Source: Chromobacterium sinusclupearum
GTDB lineage: Bacteria; Pseudomonadota; Gammaproteobacteria; Burkholderiales; Chromobacteriaceae
Assembly: GCF_002902845.1 (NCBI RefSeq)
Contig: NZ_PPTF01000065.1
Location: 1-26,394, forward strand
Direction of reading: 5' to 3'
DNA: 26,394 bases
Shown here one piece after another: positions 1 through 10,854 of this stretch. The stretch's first letter is position 1. The number at the start of each line of letters is the position of its first letter. Under the pieces are notes generated by a model that was not told the origin of the DNA, did no database searches, and saw only the letters and a list, made by a program, of their open reading frames with translations. The translations under genes and the position numbers were made by a program.

Positions 1-54
1 GGCTAAAAAGAGTGTTGCACTTCCGCAACTATATGCCAGCAGCAACGGCTTAAC

Positions 55-549
55 ATGACAAACGCAACCAACCAGCGCCCCGCCCGTCGGGGCGCAATCT
101 TTTGCGGGAGTCAGAAATTGAAACGCGTATTCAGCCCACGAACAGATTTCGTATGCGATCAAATGGAACTCGGCGTGCTGATGTTCACAAACGACGATGC
201 GGCTACAGCGAAACGATTGGGCGTTACCGTAACGGAATGGCAGAAATGGAAATATGGCGACAAGCCCGTACCGCGCTGGCTATGGCTACTGCTACGGCTA
301 GAGAAAGAAGCCGAACGACGCGGGCCATGGCGAGGCTTCCGCGCCGACGGCGACCGCATCATATCGCCATGGGGTGACAGCATGCGCTTTGACGAATGGA
401 TGCAGCTTCAGGAATACCGCCGCGCGTCCCGCCTGGCTACCGAACAAGCTGAACTGATAGAACGACTCATGGCTGAACGCGATTTCTACAAGGAAAACTG
501 CACACGTCAGGCCCGATTCGGACTGATGCTGAACAGGCTGTTCAGGTAG
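55..549 (+). CDS. Small phage regulator-like protein, paralogue A (homologous to 8956..9381)
   Basis: The C-terminal half aligns by eye with the 8956..9381 product: KPVPRWLWLL vs EPVPKAVSLWL, and EYRRASRLATEQAELIERLMAERDFYKENC vs EYRRANKLAERQAELIEKLMTDRNFYRDNC. Family name not established. Start uncertain. Confidence 0.6.
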   Translation: MTNATNQRPARRGAIFCGSQKLKRVFSPRTDFVCDQMELGVLMFTNDDAATAKRLGVTVTEWQKWKYGDKPVPRWLWLLLRLEKEAERRGPWRGFRADGDRIISPWGDSMRFDEWMQLQEYRRASRLATEQAELIERLMAERDFYKENCTRQARFGLMLNRLFR

Positions 550-571
550 ACCATGACAAAGACGTAGCGAT

Positions 572-1255
572 ATGATTGACACCCTCGAAGAAAGCACCGG
601 AGCAAAGCCAATGACAGGCTTCCTTATATTCCTAACCATCATGATCGGGGCAGCTGCCGCACTCAAAAAGAACAAGCCAAAGACCACTAAAAAGCCTCCG
701 AAAACAGAACTGCAGATCAATCCAATACCACCGCAACCACAGCCACAACGCCCGCAAGTCCAGCGTATCAACGCGCACGAAGTCGAAAAAGTCATTGAGA
801 GCGAGCCGGAAAAAAAGATCGACTTCGGAAATGCACGATTCGTATTAAAGAGAAAAACAATTCTCACCGAGCGGGAAATCGAGTGTTACCAGCGCCTAGT
901 CAAAAGTCTGTCACCCAATTTCCTTGTCTTCCCGCAGGTCGCCTTTAGCCAAATCCTTGACGCAAAAGGCGGAAGTCACAAGCAAAACATGTGGCTGCAC
1001 AGAACCATGAGCCAAAAGGTGGCGGATTTTCTGATCTGCAAAACAGACTTGACCATGGTTGCCATCATCGAATTAGACGACAGCTCACACGCAGGAAAGG
1101 AAGACAAAGACCGGCAGCGCGACAGCGTGGTACGACAAATCGGCCTACTTCCATTGAGACTACCGAGAACGCCGAAGCAGGAGCTACTAGACCGCTATGC
1201 AGAAATCTTGCAAAAGCTGCACAGCCCAACAAACCGCGAAAGCGTTACAAGCTAA
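572..1255 (+). CDS. Membrane-anchored DUF2726 (restriction-endonuclease-like / Vsr-like fold) protein
   Basis: N-terminal TM helix GFLIFLTIMIGAAAAL, followed by a Lys/Pro-rich linker. The C-terminal domain has the hallmark LTEREIECYQRL ... VADFLICK ... AIIELDDSSH ... RQRD. An alternative start at 611 has a better SD (GGAG). Confidence 0.8.
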   Translation: MIDTLEESTGAKPMTGFLIFLTIMIGAAAALKKNKPKTTKKPPKTELQINPIPPQPQPQRPQVQRINAHEVEKVIESEPEKKIDFGNARFVLKRKTILTEREIECYQRLVKSLSPNFLVFPQVAFSQILDAKGGSHKQNMWLHRTMSQKVADFLICKTDLTMVAIIELDDSSHAGKEDKDRQRDSVVRQIGLLPLRLPRTPKQELLDRYAEILQKLHSPTNRESVTS

Positions 1256-1565
1256 ATACAAACCAGCCCTCGCCGGGCAGGCGTCCCCGGGTGATGTTTG
1301 CAACATCACCCAGGGAGCGCTAAAGGGTATCAGATCGCAGGGCGTCAAGGACCGGCCGCCGCTTTGCGGTCTCCCGAGCCGATCCTTGACACCCCACCAC
1401 AATCCAGCGCGCCCGATGGCGCGAACAAGCCAATAATAAAAAGTGACTATCCGGATGTGACTCGCCGGCGCCGGGTCACGCCTGGTCAGTCACTGTGACA
1501 GAATGATCGACGACGGCGGCAGCTCAGTCACTGTGACCATCCAGGCGTGACGAGTACCAGGTGTG
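1256..1565. other. Structured intergenic region, candidate inovirus IG (origin / packaging-signal hairpins)
   Basis: About 310 bp with no credible CDS. Hairpins at 1286-1315 (13-bp stem with one bulge), 1344-1390 (12-bp arms with one mismatch) and 1475-1551 (25-nt arms). Dense GTSAC motifs. Confidence 0.5.
1475..1551. repeat. Long imperfect inverted repeat (GTCACGCCTGG..GTCACTGTGAC / GTCACTGTGAC..CCAGGCGTGAC)
   Basis: The 11-bp outer arms 1475-1485 and 1541-1551 are exact reverse complements. Each arm also carries the self-palindrome GTCACTGTGAC (1489-1499 and 1527-1537). About 21 of 25 arm positions pair, and the loop is 27 nt. Confidence 0.65.
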
Positions 1566-2330
1566 TCACGCCGGCACAGTCACACGACGACGACTGACCC
1601 TCTTTCGACAGGCAACAGTTGCAAGGCGGGCCCTTCCCTCGACTTCACGGCCACAGCCGCACTCGCAAACGCGGACATCCTCGGGAGAGCGCAGATTGAG
1701 AATGCCACGGGCCAACATTCTGGCCATATCCACCGGCACACCATTACCGACTGCGCGGTAACGCGCAGAGAGGGTGAACGATGGCAGATCTATTCCTTCA
1801 GGAAGTCCCTGCAACTGGCAAAAACGCAACCAGTCGCGCCGGCCAAGCTGCGCGCCTTCACTGGCGACACAACACGGCTCAACATCCTGAATGGGAGGCT
1901 GTCGGTCGACGGTGAGAATAAGGCCATCCCGATGACCGAACTGGAAGTGACGAAGACGATTCTGATGCAAACCACACTCAGAAGCGTTGATATCGATGCG
2001 TTGATGGCTGTATCCGTCAATGATCATGTCGGGAACACCGGACACATTCTCCATCAACCACCAAACCGGATCAGCTTCAATGACACAACGACGATACTCG
2101 GCCAACATTTCCAATCCGTAGCCAGTCGGCTCACCGCGCTGGGCCCTGCTGAAATCAGGACACGGAGGACCGCCGATAATGCCATCAAAACGCCCCCGGG
2201 CAGGATGGAATGTGCGAATGTCGCCACCATAGATGATGTCAGGACCGCGCACCACACAGAAACCCTCAGCCTCAAAACCGCGCCCGAACAAATCGATTCC
2301 CGGAAATACGCTCAGAACAAGCTGTGACAT
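1566..2330 (-). CDS. DNA (cytosine-5)-methyltransferase, short phage-type, no adjacent cognate endonuclease of a known type
   Basis: Motif I is FPGIDLFGRGF, motif IV is GGPPCPDFS, motif VI is LMENV, then QNRLR, and motif X is AVGNGVPV. The tail is Cys-rich (CECGCG...ACRKR). ATG at 2330 has GAGG 10 nt upstream. The longer ORF-track start at 2405 has no such support. Confidence 0.9.
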   Translation of the reverse strand: MSQLVLSVFPGIDLFGRGFEAEGFCVVRGPDIIYGGDIRTFHPARGRFDGIIGGPPCPDFSRAQRGEPTGYGLEMLAEYRRCVIEADPVWWLMENVSGVPDMIIDGYSHQRIDINASECGLHQNRLRHFQFGHRDGLILTVDRQPPIQDVEPCCVASEGAQLGRRDWLRFCQLQGLPEGIDLPSFTLSARYRAVGNGVPVDMARMLARGILNLRSPEDVRVCECGCGREVEGRARLATVACRKRVSRRRVTVPA

Positions 2331-2356
2331 GTTGTGTTTACCTCGAGCCTGGCGGA

Positions 2357-2394
2357 TCACAGTTAATTGTGACCGACCAGGCGTGACCTGTCCA
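2357..2394 (-). promoter_or_regulatory. Putative sigma-70 promoter (TGGACA-17 nt-CACAAT) overlapped by the palindrome TCACAGTTAATTGTGA, upstream of the methyltransferase
   Basis: On the minus strand, TGGACA lies at 2394-2389 and CACAAT at 2371-2366 with a 17-nt spacer. The 16-bp near-palindrome at 2357-2372 overlaps the -10 element. Sequence inspection only. Confidence 0.3.
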
Positions 2395-2418
2395 GGACGA
2401 ATCACCGCAGCTCAGTCA

Positions 2419-3666
2419 CTAAAATCCACTCTTGATCGACAATTCACGCTTCGGGTAGCGCGTATGATCTTCAAGAGCGTAAACATGCGATGTCGCCGGC
2501 TGCGACGCATCCATGCGAACCGGAGGCGGCACAGACTGGCCCGTCCCTGATTTGTTGTCCTGGGCTTTGCCCCATTGATCTATCGGCCACGCGGTGACAA
2601 CGTGAGGACCGCCCGTGCCATCAAGGCGGGTGAGTACGACATAATCGCCGCGCAGCTCATAGCGATAGCCAAAATAGACCAGACCAGACAAGCGGAACTG
2701 CTCGCGGACGTGGTAGGCCTCATCCATGACCTCTACCAGACCGTCAGTTTGTTTGGCGTTGCGCACCAGAACAGCAAGCCGCGGACGGTATTTGGTCAAC
2801 ATGCTAGTAACGTAGTCCGCCGGCTGCTGACTGGTATTCTCGTTAACGCCCTGCCCTTGCACCGGCTTGACCTGCTGCGCGCCGGTAGCGCTAGTGACAG
2901 CAGCCGTAGCCGAGACCGCAGCGCCCTGCCCTTGCGTCTGAGTTTGCGCTTGCGCATTACCTGCCAGCGGCGTTGCACCATGAAAGAAGCCCCACAGAAA
3001 ATAGACGGCCGCGCCCGCCAGCAACACAAACACCGGGATGACGGTAGTGAAAAGCTTGGACCTAAAAATACTGGCGCGTTCGTCCTTGAGATTGCCCTTG
3101 TTATTAACGCCATCGACATGGCTTTTGTAAATCCCGTAATATTTCTGATCGTATCGTTCGACACCGCTTTGCACTTTGGCGAACTTGTCAGGGCCGGAAC
3201 GCTCATTCATCACCCACTGGTAACGACCCTCAGCACCAAGAGCAGACAACTTTTTAAAATAAATCAGACGCTGAACGCGATCACGCCAAAATGCATGGAT
3301 GTTCTTAAATGCTTGACCACACAGCACGACGTCAATACCGCGCTGCCCGTGCTGAGTGATAAATTCGACTTGAGCGGGACTCAATTTAAACTTCGGCGGA
3401 TGAAAATCCTGCACTTCATCGAAAATGACAAGGCAGTCATTAACCGCGAATTCGTGGATATCGCCGGACTTGTCCCACGGCACTTGAATCAACATCTTTT
3501 CAACCGCTTCCAATTCCATTTCAAGAATTTCAGCGACCTTTTCATGATTCAAGCCTTTTATATTCGTGACCACGACACGGCCATTCTTGATAGCTGGAAG
3601 CGCCTGCTTAACCATGGCCTCCCAGCTCTTACCCGCACGCGGCAGACCCTCGTGGAAAACGATCAT
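2419..3666 (-). CDS. Zot / pI-family inovirus assembly ATPase
   Basis: N-terminal Walker A in FHEGLPRAGKSWEA. Central TM helix TTVIPVFVLLAGAAVYFLWGFF. C-terminal periplasmic domain. ATGA overlap with the upstream ORF. AGAGGA SD. Confidence 0.9.
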   Translation of the reverse strand: MIVFHEGLPRAGKSWEAMVKQALPAIKNGRVVVTNIKGLNHEKVAEILEMELEAVEKMLIQVPWDKSGDIHEFAVNDCLVIFDEVQDFHPPKFKLSPAQVEFITQHGQRGIDVVLCGQAFKNIHAFWRDRVQRLIYFKKLSALGAEGRYQWVMNERSGPDKFAKVQSGVERYDQKYYGIYKSHVDGVNNKGNLKDERASIFRSKLFTTVIPVFVLLAGAAVYFLWGFFHGATPLAGNAQAQTQTQGQGAAVSATAAVTSATGAQQVKPVQGQGVNENTSQQPADYVTSMLTKYRPRLAVLVRNAKQTDGLVEVMDEAYHVREQFRLSGLVYFGYRYELRGDYVVLTRLDGTGGPHVVTAWPIDQWGKAQDNKSGTGQSVPPPVRMDASQPATSHVYALEDHTRYPKRELSIKSGF

Positions 3667-3890
3667 TTTAATTGTCCTCTACGAATACGCATGAACTTGC
3701 GGTTAATTCTGAAAGCAACTCGATACACGCGTTGACGCAGGTATTTGTTATAAACGTATTCAGTAATCGACTTGCCAAAAACAAACGCCATACCAAACGC
3801 CATTCCAAAGGTAATTGCCATGGAAATCGTGTAAAACATTGTCGCCCTAACAATTAAATCTATGTCAGCTGTCGAGATTGTATAAGTCAT
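3663..3890 (-). CDS. Small inner-membrane phage protein (75 aa from ATG 3890)
   Basis: TM segment MFYTISMAITFGMAFGMAFVFG and a basic C-terminus. Its stop overlaps the zot ATG (ATGA). ATG 3890 is itself overlapped by the stop of the upstream micro-ORF. The ORF-track start at 3905 lacks an SD. Confidence 0.55.
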   Translation of the reverse strand: MTYTISTADIDLIVRATMFYTISMAITFGMAFGMAFVFGKSITEYVYNKYLRQRVYRVAFRINRKFMRIRRGQLK

Positions 3891-3964
3891 TTGAGTGCCA
3901 CCCATACAAAAAAGGCCATAAACAATAACACCATAAATAATTCAATAATTTCTGTTGTTATCAT
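3887..3964 (-). CDS. 25-aa hydrophobic micro-ORF (MITTEIIELFMVLLFMAFFVWVALK), pVII/pIX-like candidate
   Basis: Not in the ORF track. Its ATG lies 4 nt after the pVI-like stop (GGTGAtgacATG). Its stop overlaps the next start (ATGA). Confidence 0.4.
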   Translation of the reverse strand: MITTEIIELFMVLLFMAFFVWVALK

Positions 3965-3968
3965 GTCA

Positions 3969-4271
3969 TCACCATTGGAATAGCGTTACAAACTTGCGAA
4001 TTACGCGAAACACGTAAGCCGCGCCGATAATAGACATCCCTGTTGCAAAGCCTGTCACGCCGAGAAAATAAAGAATGTCCCCACCCAAGCCGTCCAAAAA
4101 CGATTGCAAACCACCCGCCAGCGCTTGCGGAAATGGGATCAGCGATATGATAAACGTGACCAGATTCAAAAGCTCACCGAATATTTTCACCGCGACATCG
4201 TAAAGCATATCCGGGATGGCTTTTAAAATTGCCATCATCAAATTGATGCAGTTCTGAAAAAAGGCTGTCAT
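3969..4271 (-). CDS. pVI-like minor coat / membrane protein
   Basis: 100 aa with 2-3 hydrophobic segments. It sits between the adsorption protein and pI, as in other inoviruses. SD is AAGGGG. Confidence 0.6.
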   Translation of the reverse strand: MTAFFQNCINLMMAILKAIPDMLYDVAVKIFGELLNLVTFIISLIPFPQALAGGLQSFLDGLGGDILYFLGVTGFATGMSIIGAAYVFRVIRKFVTLFQW

Positions 4272-4280
4272 GACTACCCC

Positions 4281-5687
4281 TTATTCAATGGCGCGACGGA
4301 AAGCGAAGAACGCACACATGACGCACCAAACGCCATATATGACGTGGAACATATTCTGCGCTGGCTGAGAACAAAACTGATCTATCGTTGCAGGCGGCAA
4401 TGAACCCGCGCCGTCAATCTGAATTGCCGGAATGGTATAGGTCGGGCACGCACCCGCGCCAATACTGACCTTGAAAAATCCCGCCGTGGCATTCACAAAT
4501 GGCGTCGCCGTGACTGCCTGCTGAAATGACTGGAACTTGCTTTGAAACGTGTCCTTGTTTGGCGTATAGACTTGCGGCATTTGTATAACCGTCGTGAAAT
4601 TCGCAAAAAAATCTTTCATCGACGCAGCAACATCTTTCAGCGTGCCATCTTGCGCCACACCGCAGGTATTCACGTCCTTACACGTGATGCTTACTGCACC
4701 GCCATGACCAGTGTCAGAACCGGTACCAGTTCCCGTGCCGGGATTAGTACCCGTACCCGGCTTAGTACCAGTGCCAGCACCCGGAACGCCAAGAGAAACG
4801 CCATTAGTCGTATTGCCCTTTTCCACGCCCTGCCCTGTCACCACGCCACCCACTATATTCGTGACATTAGTTTGATCGTTAGCAGCATCATATTGTTTGA
4901 CCTGAATACCACCAGCAATAGGAAATGATACGGCGGCAGGTTTATCAGGGTTATTTTTCGCAGCATCTTTTGACATATACATTTTTATATTGTCATTCGA
5001 CACTACAGAAAATGTTCCATTTTTCATGGCTATGCCACCATCAGCTGCAACAGGACCACAAGCAGGATTTCGAGAATCAATAGATGGGTTATCACCAGTT
5101 GCATCGATTTGACAAGGATTGCCGGGAGGCATAGGAACCTGAGAAGGGTCAGATAAATTACACGTATCACCCGAGCAGGTATAACCGGCTTGCGTATTAG
5201 GAAAATTCACAGGCGCATTGCCATCAACAGACGAACCATTAGACAACACGCACGACGCACCACCATTAGCATATGAAACATATTTCACATCAGGAAAACG
5301 CCAAGCCCAGTTACTTTGGCAATATGCGTCCCCACTACTCTGTTTTCCAGCAGGGCTATTAGGGCTAGGAACAGTTGCAGGCGGCGTAGGCCTGCCAGAT
5401 GAGTCACGCCCCCAATTAGCACCAGAACCAGTTGAGGGCGGGAGTGGAATGCAAGCAGGGTTTACGGCAATCTGACAATCCGATGCATCGCCCGCCGAAT
5501 TTGACCAGAGCGCCACGCCTAATATCGGATTGCCCGCCACAACATCCGTCAGCACTTTGGCAACGCCGCCCGCACCAATCCCCATCAGCGCAGCCGGAGC
5601 AATCGGATTAGCATACGCACGTATCGGGATAATGATCTGCGCAAACATAAACGTGACCAGCAACGAAAATCGGAGCAGTTTTTGCAT
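4281..5687 (-). CDS. pIII-like adsorption / minor coat protein
   Basis: Signal peptide MQKLLRFSLLVTFMFAQIIIPIRAYA. Cys-rich N-terminal region. Gly/Thr linker GTGTKPGTGTNPGTGTGTGSDTG. C-terminal membrane anchor VIYGVWCVMCAFFAF. Located after the major coat gene. Confidence 0.75.
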   Translation of the reverse strand: MQKLLRFSLLVTFMFAQIIIPIRAYANPIAPAALMGIGAGGVAKVLTDVVAGNPILGVALWSNSAGDASDCQIAVNPACIPLPPSTGSGANWGRDSSGRPTPPATVPSPNSPAGKQSSGDAYCQSNWAWRFPDVKYVSYANGGASCVLSNGSSVDGNAPVNFPNTQAGYTCSGDTCNLSDPSQVPMPPGNPCQIDATGDNPSIDSRNPACGPVAADGGIAMKNGTFSVVSNDNIKMYMSKDAAKNNPDKPAAVSFPIAGGIQVKQYDAANDQTNVTNIVGGVVTGQGVEKGNTTNGVSLGVPGAGTGTKPGTGTNPGTGTGTGSDTGHGGAVSITCKDVNTCGVAQDGTLKDVAASMKDFFANFTTVIQMPQVYTPNKDTFQSKFQSFQQAVTATPFVNATAGFFKVSIGAGACPTYTIPAIQIDGAGSLPPATIDQFCSQPAQNMFHVIYGVWCVMCAFFAFRRAIE

Positions 5688-5688
5688 G

Positions 5689-5763
5689 TCACCCCCTAAA
5701 CCCCTTGATTATCGACCACGCGCACAGCGCGCCCAGTGCTAACGCCAGAAATTGCCAGACCAT
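5689..5763 (-). CDS. 24-aa hydrophobic micro-ORF (MVWQFLALALGALCAWSIIKGFRG), minor-coat-like candidate
   Basis: Not in the ORF track. GGTGAG SD 2 nt upstream of the ATG (tight spacing). Its stop TGA lies 1 nt before the pIII-like ATG (GGGGGTGAcATG). Confidence 0.4.
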   Translation of the reverse strand: MVWQFLALALGALCAWSIIKGFRG

Positions 5764-5775
5764 ATCTCACCCCGG

Positions 5776-5805
5776 AATAAAAAATGGGGAGGCCGCAGCC
5801 TCCCC
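5776..5805 (-). terminator. Rho-independent terminator downstream of the major coat gene
   Basis: On the minus strand, GGGGAGGC-tgcg-GCCTCCCC is followed by ATTTTTTATT. The position matches the terminator that follows gVIII in Ff phages. Confidence 0.7.
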
Positions 5806-5824
5806 TTGCACGGCTGCGATGCGC

Positions 5825-6046
5825 TTACTTCAGCATGGACATCACGGTACGGAAACCCCACTTGGCCACACGCGGCAGCATCAGCACGGCGGCAATGGCG
5901 GCGATACCCGTCACAACAGTGCCAGCATTCACGGAACTTGTGATGGACGAGTAGTCCACGCCACCGCCATCAGCAAAGGCCGGAACGGCCAAAATGGCGG
6001 CAGGAACAGCAGCGGCATATTTCTTAGCGATGTTGATGAATTTCAT
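5825..6046 (-). CDS. Major coat protein precursor (pVIII-like)
   Basis: From ATG 6046 (SD AGAGGA) the signal peptide is MKFINIAKKYAAAVPAAILAVPAFA. The mature protein is about 48 aa with an acidic N-terminus, the hydrophobic core VVTGIAAIAAVLML and the basic C-terminus RVAKWGFR..K. Confidence 0.8.
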   Translation of the reverse strand: MKFINIAKKYAAAVPAAILAVPAFADGGGVDYSSITSSVNAGTVVTGIAAIAAVLMLPRVAKWGFRTVMSMLK

Positions 6047-6297
6047 GGTCGATCCTCTTCTATAAATCGAATGAATTGCCCGAATGCGTCCGAAACAACG
6101 AAGCACATCAGGACCAGGACAAACGACGCGCCAAACGCTTGGCCTAGCGTCGCCGTATCGGTTTTCCAGATATTCTCGGCAGTCTGGAGGCTGGCATAGT
6201 CAGACGGCTGTAAAACAATCAGCGCCTGACACTGCTCAGGTGGCGTCTGCAATAGATGCACCTGACCGGAATCTGTAATTTCCATGCATTGGGCCAT
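6043..6297 (-). CDS. Small phage protein with one TM segment
   Basis: ATGA overlap with the coat gene start. Hydrophobic stretch FGASFVLVLMCFVV. No family recognised. Confidence 0.5.
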   Translation of the reverse strand: MAQCMEITDSGQVHLLQTPPEQCQALIVLQPSDYASLQTAENIWKTDTATLGQAFGASFVLVLMCFVVSDAFGQFIRFIEEDRP

Positions 6298-6306
6298 TTC
6301 AGTCCC

Positions 6307-6513
6307 TCAATACGACGGCAATGTGTCGTAGAAATGTGCGACATGAAACTGAGCGCCCAAATGGAATTTGGCTGTTTCAATAGCCGATTCAGCTGAATCG
6401 AACCGGCCAGCGTCGGACAGGAATTTCGTATACCCGACATCCCCGTCAGGCGACGGATACAGAAACAATCCCGTATCGGTATCCTGAACGACCCAAACCG
6501 GCCCGATAGCCAT
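6307..6513 (-). CDS. Hypothetical small soluble phage protein
   Basis: 68-aa ORF starting directly after the ssb-like stop (TAAATG). No recognisable motif. Confidence 0.45.
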   Translation of the reverse strand: MAIGPVWVVQDTDTGLFLYPSPDGDVGYTKFLSDAGRFDSAESAIETAKFHLGAQFHVAHFYDTLPSY

Positions 6514-6840
6514 TTACGCCCCCTTGACCGGAGCCGCAGCAGCTTGCGCGGGTTGAGCGGTTACAGGGCGCAGAGAATGGATAACCGTCTTGGAGACCTT
6601 ACCATTCGTGACCATTTCCATTTCGCATTCGGCCATGAACGGAAATTTCAGGTTGGAAATCTGGCTGAAATTCTCAGACGTGCCCCATTCAAATTCGGAG
6701 GCAGCAAAGCCGATGGCATTGCCGGTTTTGTCGTTGAGCTTAACCTCAGCGAACAGCTTGGTATTGTCGTAACGCGTGCCGTCCACAACATCATTGAAAC
6801 GCTTGGCACCCATGATTTTCATAACATTGGTAAATTGCAT
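6514..6840 (-). CDS. Putative ssDNA-binding protein (gV-like), assigned by position
   Basis: 108 aa, immediately downstream of Rep as in inoviruses. GGAG SD. Ala/Gln-rich tail. No sequence motif confirmed. Confidence 0.5.
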   Translation of the reverse strand: MQFTNVMKIMGAKRFNDVVDGTRYDNTKLFAEVKLNDKTGNAIGFAASEFEWGTSENFSQISNLKFPFMAECEMEMVTNGKVSKTVIHSLRPVTAQPAQAAAAPVKGA

Positions 6841-6869
6841 TTTTCAGTCTCCAAACGGCGTTTAAACCC

Positions 6870-8345
6870 TTAAATCCCCGACACGCCCAAATCGAAGAGG
6901 GTTGTTTTGTTTGCGCGGCAGAATGCCTTCCAGCCTTCTTTTGTCGTCGGCAGTTCGACTTCCGGCTCCACATGCTTAGGGCGCACAAATTCGTCAAAGT
7001 CGTAATCGACATGAGCGTAATCGTGGACAAAGGAGCGATTGCCGAGATCTGCGGAAATATTGGCGAGCTTCAAGCGCTGGGGAAAACCTACGCCCGGGCG
7101 GGCCAAGGTTTCGACAATGGTCGATTCGGACCATTTAGCAACATCGCGCATGTAGTTGACGAGGCGGCCAACTTGCAGGGCGGCATAATGCAAATAGTGA
7201 TCTAGCGCGTGTTCCGCTTCTTTGATGATGGTGGTAATCCGCTCAGGCGCTTTCTTACCCCGGAACCGCTCAAACGCGGGATATGCACCGGCGAGATAGG
7301 CGCCAGCATTAAGCAAAATGTCCAAAGGAATGATGCGGTCAATGTTCTTGAACTCGACTTCGACGCGAAACCATTCGCTCGTTTTACAGCCCTGTTCCCT
7401 GCCCTTCTCATAGCCACGGCAGAATTTGCCATTGCTACGCTTGCCGATATACAGCGTGCGGCCCGAGCCGTCCGGGTTATCCCAATCGGAGCGCTTTTCC
7501 ACGAACGGGTTGCGGCCACCGCAATTGAACAAACCGGCTTGGACATCGGAATACATCAGATCGACGTTATATTCCCCGGCAAAGTCGTCATAGGCGACGT
7601 CAACGCGGGTCAGACGCGGATTGACGGCATCGCGGTCAAGAAAGTCGTACAGGCGTTTTTCCCAGCCAGACCGAGCAGCCATGCAGCCAACGGCAGTCAG
7701 CTGGATACACATCGTGTTTCGCTGACCACCAAACGATAGATTGCCGTAGCAAACATCCTCTTGGCCCAACACCCATGTATCGCGGTAAAAGTTCATGCCC
7801 TTCGGACGCTTGGAGCAAACGCCGAAGCCAAAAATCTGCTCTAATTTCCACGACATCGTGGCGATGAAATCGTCATCGGATACCATTCTGTGACCGGCTA
7901 TGACATGGCAGGTGTCTTCATGGACGGAGAACGTCAGCTGGTCAACGTGGGCAAGATCATCGCCCCAGCCTTGAGCGCGAACGGTAACGATTTTTACCTG
8001 CCCATCGTCAAGAACCAGCTCAACGGGGCACAGGTAATCCGGTGGAGTTTCAAAAGCGGTCGCGCCGGTACGTTGGCACTTTCCCCCCGTGTTACTAGTG
8101 GGGGGAAGCACCCCCGAAGTGGTGGCCGCTGGCGCGTCCACAACTTCGGTGGCGCTTCTGCCAGCACTCGGCAGCGGCAGGTCCGCCACAGTAGGCAGCG
8201 TCAGCCAGTAACGAATATCCCGGATTGCGCGGACAGATTGAGCCGGCTGAGCGGGCTTGGAAGGGTCAAAGACGGCCCGATAACGCGGCTCGCCGCCGGT
8301 CTCTTTCCGCAGGTTTACAGCTTCCATCGGGCGTCTTTTAGACAT
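6870..8345 (-). CDS. Rolling-circle replication initiation protein (Rep_trans / phage gII-like family)
   Basis: Family-typical blocks are LTRVDVAYDDF, LYIGKRSNGKFCRGYEKG and WFRVEVEFKN. ATG 8345 has an AGGA SD. The ORF-track start at 8372 has none. Confidence 0.85.
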   Translation of the reverse strand: MSKRRPMEAVNLRKETGGEPRYRAVFDPSKPAQPAQSVRAIRDIRYWLTLPTVADLPLPSAGRSATEVVDAPAATTSGVLPPTSNTGGKCQRTGATAFETPPDYLCPVELVLDDGQVKIVTVRAQGWGDDLAHVDQLTFSVHEDTCHVIAGHRMVSDDDFIATMSWKLEQIFGFGVCSKRPKGMNFYRDTWVLGQEDVCYGNLSFGGQRNTMCIQLTAVGCMAARSGWEKRLYDFLDRDAVNPRLTRVDVAYDDFAGEYNVDLMYSDVQAGLFNCGGRNPFVEKRSDWDNPDGSGRTLYIGKRSNGKFCRGYEKGREQGCKTSEWFRVEVEFKNIDRIIPLDILLNAGAYLAGAYPAFERFRGKKAPERITTIIKEAEHALDHYLHYAALQVGRLVNYMRDVAKWSESTIVETLARPGVGFPQRLKLANISADLGNRSFVHDYAHVDYDFDEFVRPKHVEPEVELPTTKEGWKAFCRANKTTLFDLGVSGI

Positions 8346-8372
8346 TGTTGCAAGTCCTAGAATCGTTAACAT

Positions 8373-8469
8373 TCTGCGAGACCGGAACTAATCGCGGTCG
8401 CTATAATCAATCAAGACTTTGAACTAACTAAAAGCCTTGAACTAACGATCCAAAGACTAGCTCAAGGGC
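8373..8469. promoter_or_regulatory. Divergent rep/repressor control region with direct repeats
   Basis: TTGAACTAAC occurs twice (8419-8428 and 8437-8446), 18 bp apart. TATAAT lies at 8402-8407 on the plus strand. (A)AGACT is repeated at 8414-8418 and 8454-8458. Confidence 0.5.
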
Positions 8470-8493
8470 ATGAATGACTCAAGGGATTTAGCT

Positions 8494-8880
8494 ATGAAAA
8501 AATCGGTGGAATACCTGCGGGAAGCCAAAGAAGCACTTGGCTGCGAATCGGACTACCAACTTGCAAAGGCGCTGAAGACAAGCACAGTCAACATCTCAAA
8601 CTACATGAATGGGATCAGCAAAATGGACGACTACCATTGCATCAAAGTCGCCCAGGTGCTGGGCATCGATCCCATGGAAATCATTGCTGCTGCTCAAGAA
8701 GAGCGGGAAAAGTCGGAAGAGAAAAAGGAGTTCTGGCGGGATTTTCGGAAGGCGCGAGGCAACATCCTCGGGGCAGCAATCGCGCTGGCGCTGGGCCTGA
8801 CGACGGCCCTATCCCCGAGCCATACTGAGGCAAAGTCCTATGGCCCTCTATATTATGTCAAATACAGTATGTCGTATTAG
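8494..8880 (+). CDS. XRE/cI-type HTH repressor with a C-terminal hydrophobic segment
   Basis: HTH is DYQLAKALKTSTVNISNYMNG. C-terminal TM-like stretch is ILGAAIALALGLTTAL. Divergent from Rep. ATG 8494 has an AAGGGA SD 7 nt upstream. The ORF-track start is 8470. Confidence 0.75.
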   Translation: MKKSVEYLREAKEALGCESDYQLAKALKTSTVNISNYMNGISKMDDYHCIKVAQVLGIDPMEIIAAAQEEREKSEEKKEFWRDFRKARGNILGAAIALALGLTTALSPSHTEAKSYGPLYYVKYSMSY

Positions 8881-8955
8881 GAATGCAATGCAGATCGCTA
8901 TGACATCAACTACGTCGCTGAAATACGACACTTAGGCCGCATTCAGCGCATCCCA

Positions 8956-9381
8956 TTGTACAACCGCAGCCTCATGAAACGCAGCAAACCTATTTCTACA
9001 TTTCCATGCAACCCGGACGAACTCTACCGGGCTGTTTGTTTTGGTGACATCAATGAAGTGGCCGATGAGCTAGCCGTTACAACGGAACAAATCCACCGGT
9101 GGCGAACCGGGCAAGAACCTGTTCCCAAGGCTGTTTCCCTATGGCTCAAGCATCGCAACTGCACCACGCTAGGCGCTCAGTTTGGTCCGTTCAAAGGGTT
9201 TCGCCTATGCGATCGCGGCGACGCCCTGGTATGTCCAGCCAGCGGCATGAGGATCAACTTCTCTGAAATCCCGCTGCTGGATGAGTATCGGCGCGCTAAT
9301 AAATTAGCCGAGAGACAGGCTGAACTGATCGAAAAGCTAATGACGGATAGGAATTTCTACAGGGACAATTGCCACCTGTAA
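8956..9381 (+). CDS. Small phage regulator-like protein, paralogue B (homologous to 55..549), ended by TAA before a conserved tail
   Basis: Aligns with 55..549 (see that feature). 8956 is a TTG; ATG 8974 is an alternative start. Homology to paralogue A continues in frame after the TAA at 9379-9381. Confidence 0.6.
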   Translation: MYNRSLMKRSKPISTFPCNPDELYRAVCFGDINEVADELAVTTEQIHRWRTGQEPVPKAVSLWLKHRNCTTLGAQFGPFKGFRLCDRGDALVCPASGMRINFSEIPLLDEYRRANKLAERQAELIEKLMTDRNFYRDNCHL

Positions 9382-9421
9382 GCCCGCTACGGACTGATGT
9401 TCAACATATTCAGGTGACAAT

Positions 9422-9799
9422 ATGAACAAATGGATAGCTATCGCAAGCGCCCTAGCATCAATAAGCGCACACGGAGCCGTGATCGAATGCAAGATCGACA
9501 ACACGGAATCAACGATATTCACCAGCGCACAATTCTGCCCGGCTGGCACCACATACAAACGCATGATGCTGAACGTTGACGACCCCAGCATCGCTGCCAT
9601 CAAGGCGCAAAGCGAAAATCGCCAACCTATGCAAGCGGCGGCGCCACGCTACACATGCGATCAGCTACGCGCTCAGCGTGACTACCTATACCAAGTGTTA
9701 GATCCTCACAGCATTTATCATGACAGAGAACCGCAGCCGCTAACCAAACTGCACAACGTCAAGGCCCAGATGAACGAGCAGAACTGCAAGATGATGTAA
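9422..9799 (+). CDS. Secreted Cys-containing hypothetical protein (prophage cargo)
   Basis: Signal peptide MNKWIAIASALASISAHG. Four Cys in the mature part. SD is AGGTGA. No family recognised. Confidence 0.6.
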   Translation: MNKWIAIASALASISAHGAVIECKIDNTESTIFTSAQFCPAGTTYKRMMLNVDDPSIAAIKAQSENRQPMQAAAPRYTCDQLRAQRDYLYQVLDPHSIYHDREPQPLTKLHNVKAQMNEQNCKMM

Positions 9800-9864
9800 T
9801 GCCACACTGGCAGTCGGCCACACAGCCCAAACTCGCAACGCGTCTAAGCCAAGATTGGCACGCG

Positions 9865-10755
9865 CTACTTCCAGAACGCCCCTGCCTGACGCAGCCTCCG
9901 CAAAGCCTTCTGTACCTCGGAGGCCGCCGGCGGATCCTGTTGCATCAGCACGTTGCACAGCTGATTTGCTTCGCCGCGCAAGGCTGGCGCATCCTGGGCG
10001 CATTGCTCAAGCAGGCTCTGCGCCGCCGCCCTGTCGTTGATGGTTCCCAGCAGTTGCTGCACCTCCTGCAAGGGTTTCAAGTATTGCTTGACCGACTTGC
10101 GCCGGTACAAGGCAGAGAAGAATTCGACCGAATAGCGCAGCTTCTTCGCCCGCTTGCGCAAATCGTGACGTTGCTCCGCATCCAGCGTGTGCCAGCGTCG
10201 GGCTAGACGGCGCACCGTTTTCCAACTGCGCCGCAGAGACTTCCTAGCAAAACCAGGTTGTTTCTCTTGCTCATCAGTCCCCGGAGGCTGATTCAACAAA
10301 CCAAGCAGCGCGCCGCACCAGGCCATATGATCGGGCGAGGACAAACTGGCGCGCACGGCGGAACGGGCCTGCTCTCGACGCTGCCGCAATGCCCGGCGCA
10401 GGGCGCTCAGTCTCAGGCAGCGGGCGCTGGCCTGCTCCGCCTCAGGCAGTATCTGCAGCAGCAATACGTCCAAGTCTCGAAGCCGCCCCAGCGCGGCGGC
10501 CAGCCGTTGCGCCTGGGCCATCACCGGCTCCCAGTCGGCGCCGCTCGTCAGCGGCGCGAAGGCCTTGCCGGCCGCGCGCAGCCGGCGCAAGGCGACTCTT
10601 GCCTGATGCACGTATTCCGGATCGTCGCAGGACAGGATGCCTGGCACATTGGACGACAGATGGCGCAGACTCTCCAGCATGACGCTGCGCAGCGCCTGCC
10701 TGGGCGTCATGCTGGCGCGCAGCGCGGGTTGGCGGGCTGTCGATGGCGTGGGCAT
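9865..10755 (-). CDS. CHAD domain-containing protein
   Basis: Repeated helical His/Arg motifs are typical of CHAD: VHQARVALRRLRAA and RHDLRKRAKKLRYSVEFF. Confidence 0.85.
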   Translation of the reverse strand: MPTPSTARQPALRASMTPRQALRSVMLESLRHLSSNVPGILSCDDPEYVHQARVALRRLRAAGKAFAPLTSGADWEPVMAQAQRLAAALGRLRDLDVLLLQILPEAEQASARCLRLSALRRALRQRREQARSAVRASLSSPDHMAWCGALLGLLNQPPGTDEQEKQPGFARKSLRRSWKTVRRLARRWHTLDAEQRHDLRKRAKKLRYSVEFFSALYRRKSVKQYLKPLQEVQQLLGTINDRAAAQSLLEQCAQDAPALRGEANQLCNVLMQQDPPAASEVQKALRRLRQAGAFWK

Positions 10756-10818
10756 CTGGGCCTCCTTTTCATGTGTGACGGCCGCAGGAGATATTCCAAG
10801 ACTAGAGAATGCCTTATG

Positions 10819-10854
10819 CCATGAGCCTGGCGGCGCAAACCGGCAGGCTCATGG
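10819..10854 (-). terminator. Perfect 11-bp stem-loop downstream of cysN (possible terminator or REP-like element)
   Basis: CCATGAGCCTG (10819-10829) and CAGGCTCATGG (10844-10854) are exact reverse complements. No clear U-tract follows. Confidence 0.3.

Follow-up and report, generated by a model that had tools for sequence, protein, structure and literature searches.

Do a nuclease-type gene and a DNA methyltransferase gene that face each other on a filamentous prophage form a restriction–modification (R-M) pair, or did two separate passengers settle next to one another? This question is raised by a 26,394-nucleotide stretch of Chromobacterium sinusclupearum DNA (contig NZ_PPTF01000065.1, hereafter the window), which carries an inovirus (filamentous phage) prophage extending from before position 1 to ~9.8 kb. 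Within the prophage, a plus-strand open reading frame (ORF) at 572–1255 encodes a protein in which a basic linker connects a transmembrane helix to a DUF2726 domain, and a minus-strand gene at 1566–2330 encodes a compact C5-cytosine methyltransferase with all core motifs, as the original prediction had read from the DNA. That prediction favored an R-M-like module, with the methylase shielding self DNA from attack by the DUF2726 protein, and named independent action of the two genes as the alternative. Sequence comparison indicates that the two genes are very probably independent single-gene accessory modules brought side by side by separate insertions, because each occurs without the other in close relatives, a methylase of this family is absent from all 137 DUF2726 loci compared, and the methylase occupies a discrete cassette.

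The closest relative of the prophage, in Chromobacterium sp. ASV23 (locus L001), encodes DUF2726, Zot and pVI proteins 97%, 96% and 99% identical to those of the window and has no methylase, and a C. amazonense locus (L002) likewise carries DUF2726 (88% identical) and no methylase. Another Chromobacterium element (L003) has the methylase cassette, a XafT-like gene and the intergenic hairpins described below and lacks DUF2726, leaving the window as the only one of these four elements with both genes. A methylase-family profile (E ≤ 0.01) found no match in 81 genome and 56 viral DUF2726 loci with flanks of up to 10 kb, the outcome that had been named beforehand as refuting linkage, and a look-up of protein P0046 for possible co-occurrence in C. 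haemolyticum returned nothing on record. The methylase occurs without DUF2726 in L003, in the plasmid-like contig L004 and at 80 viral loci, and the 13 example loci inspected in detail have other neighbors. A Type II-like R-M or exclusion module, formed by a membrane-tethered DUF2726 restriction endonuclease and a cognate convergent methylase, draws on the adjacent, convergent nuclease-fold and methylase genes of this one window and on comparative work that terms DUF2726 a restriction-endonuclease-fold DNase (PMC3710099, PMC3424549). Type II systems differ from this locus in that the two genes here are not co-inherited and the methylase lies on a separate inserted cassette that has inverted repeats at its ends, and together with the separate occurrence of both genes this makes an R-M module very improbable. 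Seen as an R-M pair, the locus is unremarkable, since two insertions happen to coincide, and the finding is to that extent less striking than first proposed.

The boundaries of the methylase insertion are defined by alignment with L001. In blastn comparisons window positions 553–1425 correspond to L001 9982–10854 and positions 2416–5140 to L001 10861–13576, with breaks at 1425 and 2416, and the intergenic hairpins and the Zot stop codon are 6 nt apart in L001, where the window has 990 nt between them. The inserted cassette (1442–2420, minus strand, ~979 bp) starts with AGTGAC, ends with GTCACT and is bounded by imperfect 52-nt inverted repeats at 1442–1493 and 2369–2420 that are 73% complementary. 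Its flanks read ...AATAAAA/AGTGAC...GTCACT/AAAATCC (slashes mark the cassette ends) compared to the L001 empty site CATTAAAAACCACTC, with A-runs bordering the cassette where the L001 empty site reads CATTAAAAACC. The methylase ORF is the sole content of the cassette besides a weak sigma-70-like promoter match (9/12 positions) at 2394–2366 on the minus strand, within the upstream repeat. An antisense ORF of 254 amino acids (aa) at 1563–2327 on the plus strand spans the whole methylase gene; no family matches it, and it is probably a by-product of the high G+C content of the coding sequence.

The DUF2726 gene is delimited as a second single-gene module (552–1265, plus strand) by an indel relative to L003. 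Window positions 50–548, within a XafT-like gene, align with L003 3191–3692 (77% DNA identity) and positions 1266–1424 with L003 3698–3856 (blastn), and in L003 the XafT-like stop codon is followed by ~5 nt and then the intergenic hairpins, with the DUF2726 module missing. L001 has the same module and leader (ATGACAAAsACGTAG), preceded there by another variant of the XafT-like gene. Its absence from the related element L003 marks the DUF2726 gene as accessory and dispensable for the phage life cycle. The convergent genes are separated by positions 1256–1565, as originally described, although the single structured region placed there is two things: phage hairpins at 1266–1424 and a repeat array of the methylase cassette at 1443–1583. 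Folded as single-stranded DNA (ssDNA), 1266–1424 forms three hairpins (−54.5 kcal/mol, z = −6.27), and it is conserved at 88% identity to L003, where coding DNA is 75–77% identical, and at 91–95% to L001 and L002. This intergenic region belongs to neither cargo module, matches no Rfam family (gathering thresholds, window 1–10000, with no family matched anywhere in that range) and is probably a packaging signal and/or a complementary-strand (minus-strand) origin.

If the DUF2726 gene did not arrive with a methylase, what might it encode? The 227-aa protein matches Pfam DUF2726 (PF10881; E = 2.8e-19, 69.5 bits vs a cut-off of 24.7, aa 95–190) and also DUF559 (E = 3.7e-5, 24.0 bits vs a cut-off of 20.6). 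An N-terminal hydrophobic helix (aa 15–31, 614–664; helical in the AlphaFold model), preceded by an acidic or very short tail and followed by KKNKPKTTKKPPK, leads through a Lys/Pro-rich linker (665–826) into a DUF2726/DUF559-like domain of Vsr type (827–1222). The IELDDSSH motif highlighted in the original prediction lies at aa 166–173 (nt 1067–1090), and alignment confirms that the nuclease-type residues around it are intact: E102, Q122, K149, D152, E167, D169, D170, H173, D180 and R183 are invariant in 19 homologs with identities down to 31%, and D152, E167, D169, D170, H173 and D180, unchanged in 19–20 sequences, form the D...E-x-D-x3-H...D pattern of the DUF559/Vsr group. A sequence match in the Protein Data Bank (PDB) to 3HRL, a Neisseria gonorrhoeae 'endonuclease-like protein' (E = 0.027), aligns at the D (DF), E-x-D (E-A-D) and H positions. 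AlphaFold predicts an alpha/beta domain with a per-residue confidence score (pLDDT) above 90 across most of aa 90–215, and the domain-only model has a pLDDT of 87.8 and a predicted template-modelling (TM) score of 0.77. Foldseek comparison of the full-length and domain-only models with the PDB returned weak matches that all share the restriction-endonuclease-like fold (VRR_NUC, Mus81, EcoT38I and YaeQ), the best being VRR_NUC 4qbn (probability 0.85–0.89, TM score 0.6 on the target); these models lend tentative support to such a fold for DUF2726 and add no functional detail. A classification of the PD-(D/E)xK superfamily lists DUF2726 both in the VSR/DUF559 row and in a row of its own (PMC3424549). 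NCBIfam models yielded nothing for the protein, and no functional study turned up in a literature search on DUF2726. The ten invariant residues, the confident fold and the similarity to DUF559, 3HRL and restriction-endonuclease-fold proteins argue that DUF2726 is probably a conserved, active enzyme.

The coding sequence may begin at ATG 611 (M14, giving 214 aa) instead of ATG 572, because GGAG lies 8 nt upstream of ATG 611, a C. amazonense homolog (P0002) begins there, and the −10 element of a promoter-like site at 547–576 overlaps ATG 572.

With E. coli Vsr, 3HRL and the homing endonuclease I-Bth0305I of the Vsr/DUF559/EDxHD group, the window protein shares the D...E-x-D-x3-H...D...R pattern, and it has the DUF559 match above cut-off; those proteins are soluble, whereas the DUF2726 family is membrane-anchored and has no link to dcm or introns. 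Genes for Vsr classically accompany dcm-type methylases, and by the same logic DUF2726 would repair T:G mismatches that arise from deaminated 5-methylcytosines of the neighboring methylase. The grouping of DUF2726 and DUF559 with Vsr in the PD-(D/E)xK classification (PMC3424549) fits this idea, but the two genes do not co-occur, are convergent and lie on separate modules, and an enzyme of genome-wide mismatch repair would hardly be expected to carry a membrane anchor; we regard such a repair role as exceedingly improbable. A homing endonuclease was considered on the grounds of the single-gene indel and the inclusion of I-Bth0305I in the EDxHD group, and was rejected as a poor fit to the membrane anchor found in ~95% of relatives.

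The anchor is a constant feature of the family. In all aligned DUF2726 homologs the N-terminal helix is hydrophobic and leads into a K/R-rich stretch; the near-identical proteins of L001 and L002 have a hydrophobic 17-mer that scores 2.2, and the next 15 residues contain seven K/R and one D/E. A hydrophobic N-terminal segment is present in 76 of the 81 genome relatives, and an exhaustive profile search identified the helix in 131 of 134 family representatives; in 118 of these 131 the positive charge is higher behind the helix than in front of it. Longer relatives (P0016, P0024, L007 9548–10519 and L009 9554–10429) begin with a signal peptide, which a DUF4124 domain and a Pro-rich spacer separate from the helix; this part is a variable, predicted periplasmic 'adapter' that resembles the variable N-termini of SNIPE homologs. 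Because of the charge bias after the helix, and the signal peptide and DUF4124 that precede it in the longer variants, topology prediction supports a single-pass inner-membrane protein in the N-out/C-in orientation, its nuclease-type domain predicted to be cytoplasmic, as the positive-inside rule had suggested at the outset.

The profile search recovered 7,895 DUF2726 clusters with E ≤ 1e-3, or 2,695 with the stricter E ≤ 1e-10; most of the proteins are 145–250 aa long. In IMG/VR, 56 loci carry a DUF2726 relative, nearly all on contigs of 5–14 kb, and a Zot-like ATPase is present in 55 of them, so that in the virus database the family is found almost only in inoviruses; in genomes, Zot is detectable near DUF2726 at 25 of 81 loci. 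The gene is the last one, after Zot and secretin, of a complete 9-kb inovirus (L239), and in L237 its neighbors encode a relaxase and a coupling protein of the TrwB/TraG type. Relatives also occur on 58 PLSDB plasmids, 27 of them conjugative. The small membrane-anchored DUF2726 proteins are thus a large, uncharacterised family mainly on filamentous phages and also on conjugative or mobilisable plasmids. A remnant comprising a XafT-like gene and DUF2726 and no phage structural genes was read in 24 C. violaceum contigs, including ATCC 12472 (59 collection blocks in the index), and its retention after prophage decay suggests that the host benefits. In ATCC 12472 the remnant lies at L236 8552–9615 (AE016825.1 ~2,619,500–2,620,560) beside genes for an OspG-like kinase, a Metallophos protein (phosphatase) and a CHAT-TPR protein (CHAT-protease island), with a Tle1-like lipase gene nearby.

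The company of XafT-like genes points to the main rival to an exclusion function, in which DUF2726 would be a structure-specific endonuclease that acts with the XafT-like factor, at the membrane or septum, in Xer-dependent integration or excision, where it might, for example, process the junction that a one-strand XerC/D exchange leaves at dif. Endo III, a host repair enzyme, is known to assist integration of CTX phage. The XafT-like ORF directly upstream of the DUF2726 module (55–549, plus strand; NCBIfam NF040522, E = 1.3e-7, 31.7 bits against a cut-off of 70) and a second paralog at 8956–9381 (plus strand) appear to be distant relatives of the VC1465 Xer-activation factor family that score under the family cut-off. 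A relative of one of these two ORFs adjoins DUF2726 in L001, L002, L010, L011 and L236, as in the window, and lies within ~1 kb in L012, L013 and L239, and the best, though weak, structural neighbors of DUF2726 are the junction or flap nucleases VRR_NUC, Mus81 and FAN1. L003, however, has the XafT-like gene without DUF2726, a XafT-like gene is detectable at only 2 of 56 viral and 6 of 81 genome DUF2726 loci, the XafT assignment is itself sub-threshold, and no dif-like site was found in the window, where three patterns gave either no match or chance-level matches. On balance we consider an integration role unlikely.

Could the protein instead be a toxin? As a toxin or abortive-infection effector, rendered harmless by its membrane tether until infection releases or activates it, or as a non-catalytic anchor for phage DNA at the assembly site, DUF2726 would fit its single-gene accessory status on mobile elements, its frequent position beside the assembly genes Zot or secretin, and the toxicity of the analogous protein SNIPE once its helix is removed. 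A purely structural role is argued against by the invariant metal-binding or catalytic-type residues and an assembly role by the dispensability of the gene in L003, and no antitoxin-like partner is consistently adjacent; a toxin or anchor is distinctly unlikely.

We favor, as a plausible analogy, a role for DUF2726 in superinfection or entry exclusion, because the family combines an active-site pattern with a membrane-tethered, predicted cytoplasmic domain, is accessory, travels on carriers that enter as ssDNA and is retained after prophage decay. SNIPE, a membrane-bound anti-phage system, offers a precedent: its N-out helix and DUF4041 domain are joined to a GIY-YIG nuclease in the cytoplasm, it cuts lambda DNA as the phage injects it, and loss of the helix makes it toxic (Saxton et al., bioRxiv 10.1101/2025.11.03.685801). 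DUF2726 proteins resemble SNIPE in their predicted N-out single helix and cytoplasmic nuclease-type domain and in having a conserved domain behind an N-terminus of variable length and sequence, and discrimination of self from non-self by location at the membrane could apply to both. In contrast to SNIPE, they have a Vsr/DUF559-type fold instead of GIY-YIG and a short Lys/Pro linker instead of DUF4041, are about half its size, and occur on inoviruses and plasmids where SNIPE occurs in chromosomal defence loci. With a different fold and no DUF4041, the window protein is not a SNIPE member, and we infer that the resemblance is functional.

We then asked what kind of enzyme the cassette encodes. 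The 254-aa methyltransferase matches PF00145 (E = 1.5e-17) and many PADLOC models for Type II, orphan and DISARM methylases, and among 22 homologs motifs I (FPGIDLxGxGF), IV (GGPPCPDFS), VI (ENV), VIII (QNRxRHF) and X (GNGVP) show little or no variation. The protein has a short variable region and ends with a CxCxC...C motif (C222, C224, C226 and C241 invariant) and a basic tail; its PDB profile matches are M.HaeIII (2.7e-18), DNMT3A (1e-6) and M.HhaI. The FPGID sequence of motif I resembles the DNMT3 variant. No endonuclease gene shares its mobile unit; one relative, in L004, has a Type III R-M system beside it, but the gene neighborhoods mark this methylase as most likely an orphan enzyme.

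The family comprises 2474 matches, many of the best on short contigs, and its contexts range from a Mob plasmid beside a Type III R-M system to tailed-phage contigs and very different inoviruses. L003 carries the cassette with 75% DNA and 88% protein identity and the same repeat architecture between two small ORFs and a Rep gene, and the small plasmid-like contig L004 has a 71%-identical methylase after a relaxase and before the Type III system, with repeats downstream only. In the window the cassette lies directly downstream of Zot, and it follows Zot immediately in five other inoviruses (L085 4585–5502, L222 969–1844, L230 6973–7842, L231 1773–2654 and L232 8085–8894), where the methylases are 67–73% identical to that of the window and the Zot proteins range from undetectable or unalignable to 53% identical. 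This disparity at a shared position indicates horizontal spread of the cassette to a preferred site after Zot; orphan methylases thereby appear to travel as a discrete unit, even between highly divergent filamentous phages, and to land after gene I. A comparable cargo is the dcm gene that 11.5% of Pf filamentous prophages carry as an insertion after PA0718 (PMC7549136), which is also variable, single-gene C5-methylase cargo without a partner endonuclease. The window family differs in being compact (~250–300 aa) and in having the four-Cys C-terminal motif, the basic tail and flanking GTGAC-N27-GTCAC arrays, and a tblastn search of the deposited-phage collection with the methylase gave 18 matches with no Pf phage record among them.

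What do the flanking arrays contribute? Every GTGAC or GTCAC pentamer in 1443–1583 and 2369–2419 pairs as GTGAC-N27-GTCAC, a 37-bp unit. The 3′ array (1443–1583; fold z = −4.3) contains five units, with pentamers at 1443/1475, 1457/1489, 1495/1527, 1533/1565 and 1547/1579, and overlaps the last methylase codons, so that the first array pentamer yields a recurrent ...RRR-x-V-T protein tail; the 5′ module (2369–2419) reads GTGAC-N9-GTGAC-N13-ATCAC-N9-GTCAC and contains the weak promoter match. The 51-nt module corresponds to two units interleaved at an offset of 14 nt, which is 14 or 17 nt in the arrays of relatives. Across 64 arrays beside methylase relatives, the N27 spacing occurs 32 times, N13 25 times and N9 29 and 25 times, with N12/N10 also present and junctions of 1–4 nt, and GTSAC is enriched 26-fold. 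Arrays also occur at L003 453–503 and 1318–1496, at L004 3778–3870, and in L085, L086, L090, L095, L100 and others. CCWGG was rejected as the key array motif at 3.8-fold enrichment compared to 26-fold for GTSAC. Readings of the arrays as integron attC sites, repetitive extragenic palindromic or mosaic elements (REP/BIME), CRP sites or DNA-uptake sequences were likewise set aside, because their motifs differ and because the arrays accompany the methylase in a wide range of taxa.

A methylase clade comprising L099 and L102–L105 (71–76% identical within the clade and ≤57% to the rest) is flanked by GTTAC-N27-GTAAC with the same spacing, in place of the GTGAC-N27-GTCAC that most of the other relatives have. 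The pentamer thus co-varies with the enzyme clade, which points to the arrays probably being recognised by the methylase itself. Some Type II enzymes, Tsp45I among them, are known to target GTSAC, and no cytosine other than the 3′ C is shared by both strands and both pentamer variants, making GTNA(m5)C a reasonable guess for the methylation target. The arrays could serve in autoregulation, as loading sites or as mobility ends. Clusters of methylation sites act as switches at P1 pac with its Dam sites, at oriC with SeqA and at IS10 ends, and some methylases regulate their own promoters. The window resembles these systems in having a dense, short palindrome-type motif (GTSAC) that lies beside the methylase gene, overlaps its predicted promoter and changes with the clade, but those systems lack the strict 27-bp spacing and interleaved units. 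The exact 51-nt module is present on 14 IMG/VR contigs, nine of which have the methylase adjacent. Solo modules with no methylase nearby occur on two tailed-phage contigs (L221 1423–1473 and L233 ~4430–4602), between a 174-aa (L221) or 134-aa (L233) ORF and an ORF of ~500 aa that look by inspection like terminase subunits. Sites of the pac or cos type usually lie by terminase genes, and the solo modules are reminiscent of the P1 pac site, which is under the control of methylation.

How might the two modules work on one prophage? In the explanation that we tentatively put forward, and to which we assign slightly less than an even chance, an entry nuclease and an orphan anti-restriction methylase would sit by chance side by side at the end of the inovirus morphogenesis operon. 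The resident prophage would produce the membrane-tethered DUF2726 nuclease, which would cut superinfecting phage genomes and conjugative or transforming DNA as they emerge into the cytoplasm at the inner membrane, with self and non-self distinguished by location at the membrane and not by methylation. The methylase, expressed from its own cassette promoter, would modify both the host chromosome and the replicative form of the phage, so that the phage evades host restriction, and would recognise the flanking arrays as targets or as binding or regulatory sites. Several points weigh against this explanation. The nuclease activity of DUF2726, its substrate and its exclusion or defence phenotype are inferred from sequence and analogy, no PADLOC model matches the protein, and its Foldseek matches are weak (best E ~0.1), with the Vsr, DUF559 and 3HRL structures not at the top. 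By a locally built profile, 56 of the 81 genome loci have no Zot, which makes the mobile-element share outside the virus database uncertain, and in Chromobacteriaceae DUF2726 usually adjoins a XafT-like gene, which could mean an Xer-dependent integration role. For the methylase, motif I is FPGID (of FxGI type) and not FxGxG, and both target and activity are putative; for the cassette, the possible target duplication is only an AAA(A) run and no transposase or recombinase is encoded, which makes movement by transposition doubtful as well as conjectural.

A broader version of the entry-nuclease explanation, which we hold as doubtful, would make the membrane-anchored DUF2726 proteins (~2,700 clusters at E ≤ 1e-10) widespread entry-exclusion nucleases of mobile elements, a minimal counterpart of SNIPE built on another fold, which would destroy DNA on arrival at the cytoplasmic face of the inner membrane and require no methylation mark. 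Separately, the methylase and its clade-specific GTNAC-N27-GTNAC arrays would form a self-recognising unit, in which the enzyme binds or methylates its flanking sites and so governs its own expression or its spread between phages. The membrane-anchored family is a testable candidate for DNA exclusion by resident filamentous prophages and plasmids. If true, cutting DNA at entry would be a general strategy that evolved at least twice, and DUF2726 a class of defence or exclusion genes missed by current defence-finder models. Clade-linked, strictly spaced arrays could in turn reveal the methylase target, or a new form of self-regulation or mobility.

The remaining gene content bears out the ssDNA phage setting that had been proposed for the two genes. 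An inovirus is identified by the Zot/gene I-like assembly ATPase (2419–3666; PF05707, E = 7.3e-32), which is the last morphogenesis gene, together with a DUF2523/pVI protein (3969–4271), a 93-aa coat-like ORF (5825–6106) and a Rep_trans initiator (6870–8372; PF02486), all on the minus strand, which also encodes a pIII-like protein (4281–5687) and a 108-aa protein (6514–6840). A helix–turn–helix repressor gene (8470–8880) lies on the plus strand. The closest protein matches are in Chromobacterium sp. ASV23, C. amazonense and C. violaceum. Deposited phages hold almost no relatives: megablast of window 1–9500 gave no match, the methylase has one 42% match (Pseudoalteromonas phage GXT1010) and DUF2726 matches two Acinetobacter contigs, so that no characterised phage can serve as a guide. 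A search for tRNA genes found none. Beyond the prophage end, a minus-strand CHAD-domain host gene (9865–10755) is followed by host CysN and CysD from 10883; the CHAD gene region (9803–10812) has no counterpart at the same junction in C. amazonense (L002), and plus-strand ORFs at 9799–10206 and 10258–10824 that overlap the CHAD gene are probably spurious. The two XafT-like paralogs mark both ends of the prophage, and their 3′ parts (444–535 vs 9315–9406) are 72% identical in DNA.

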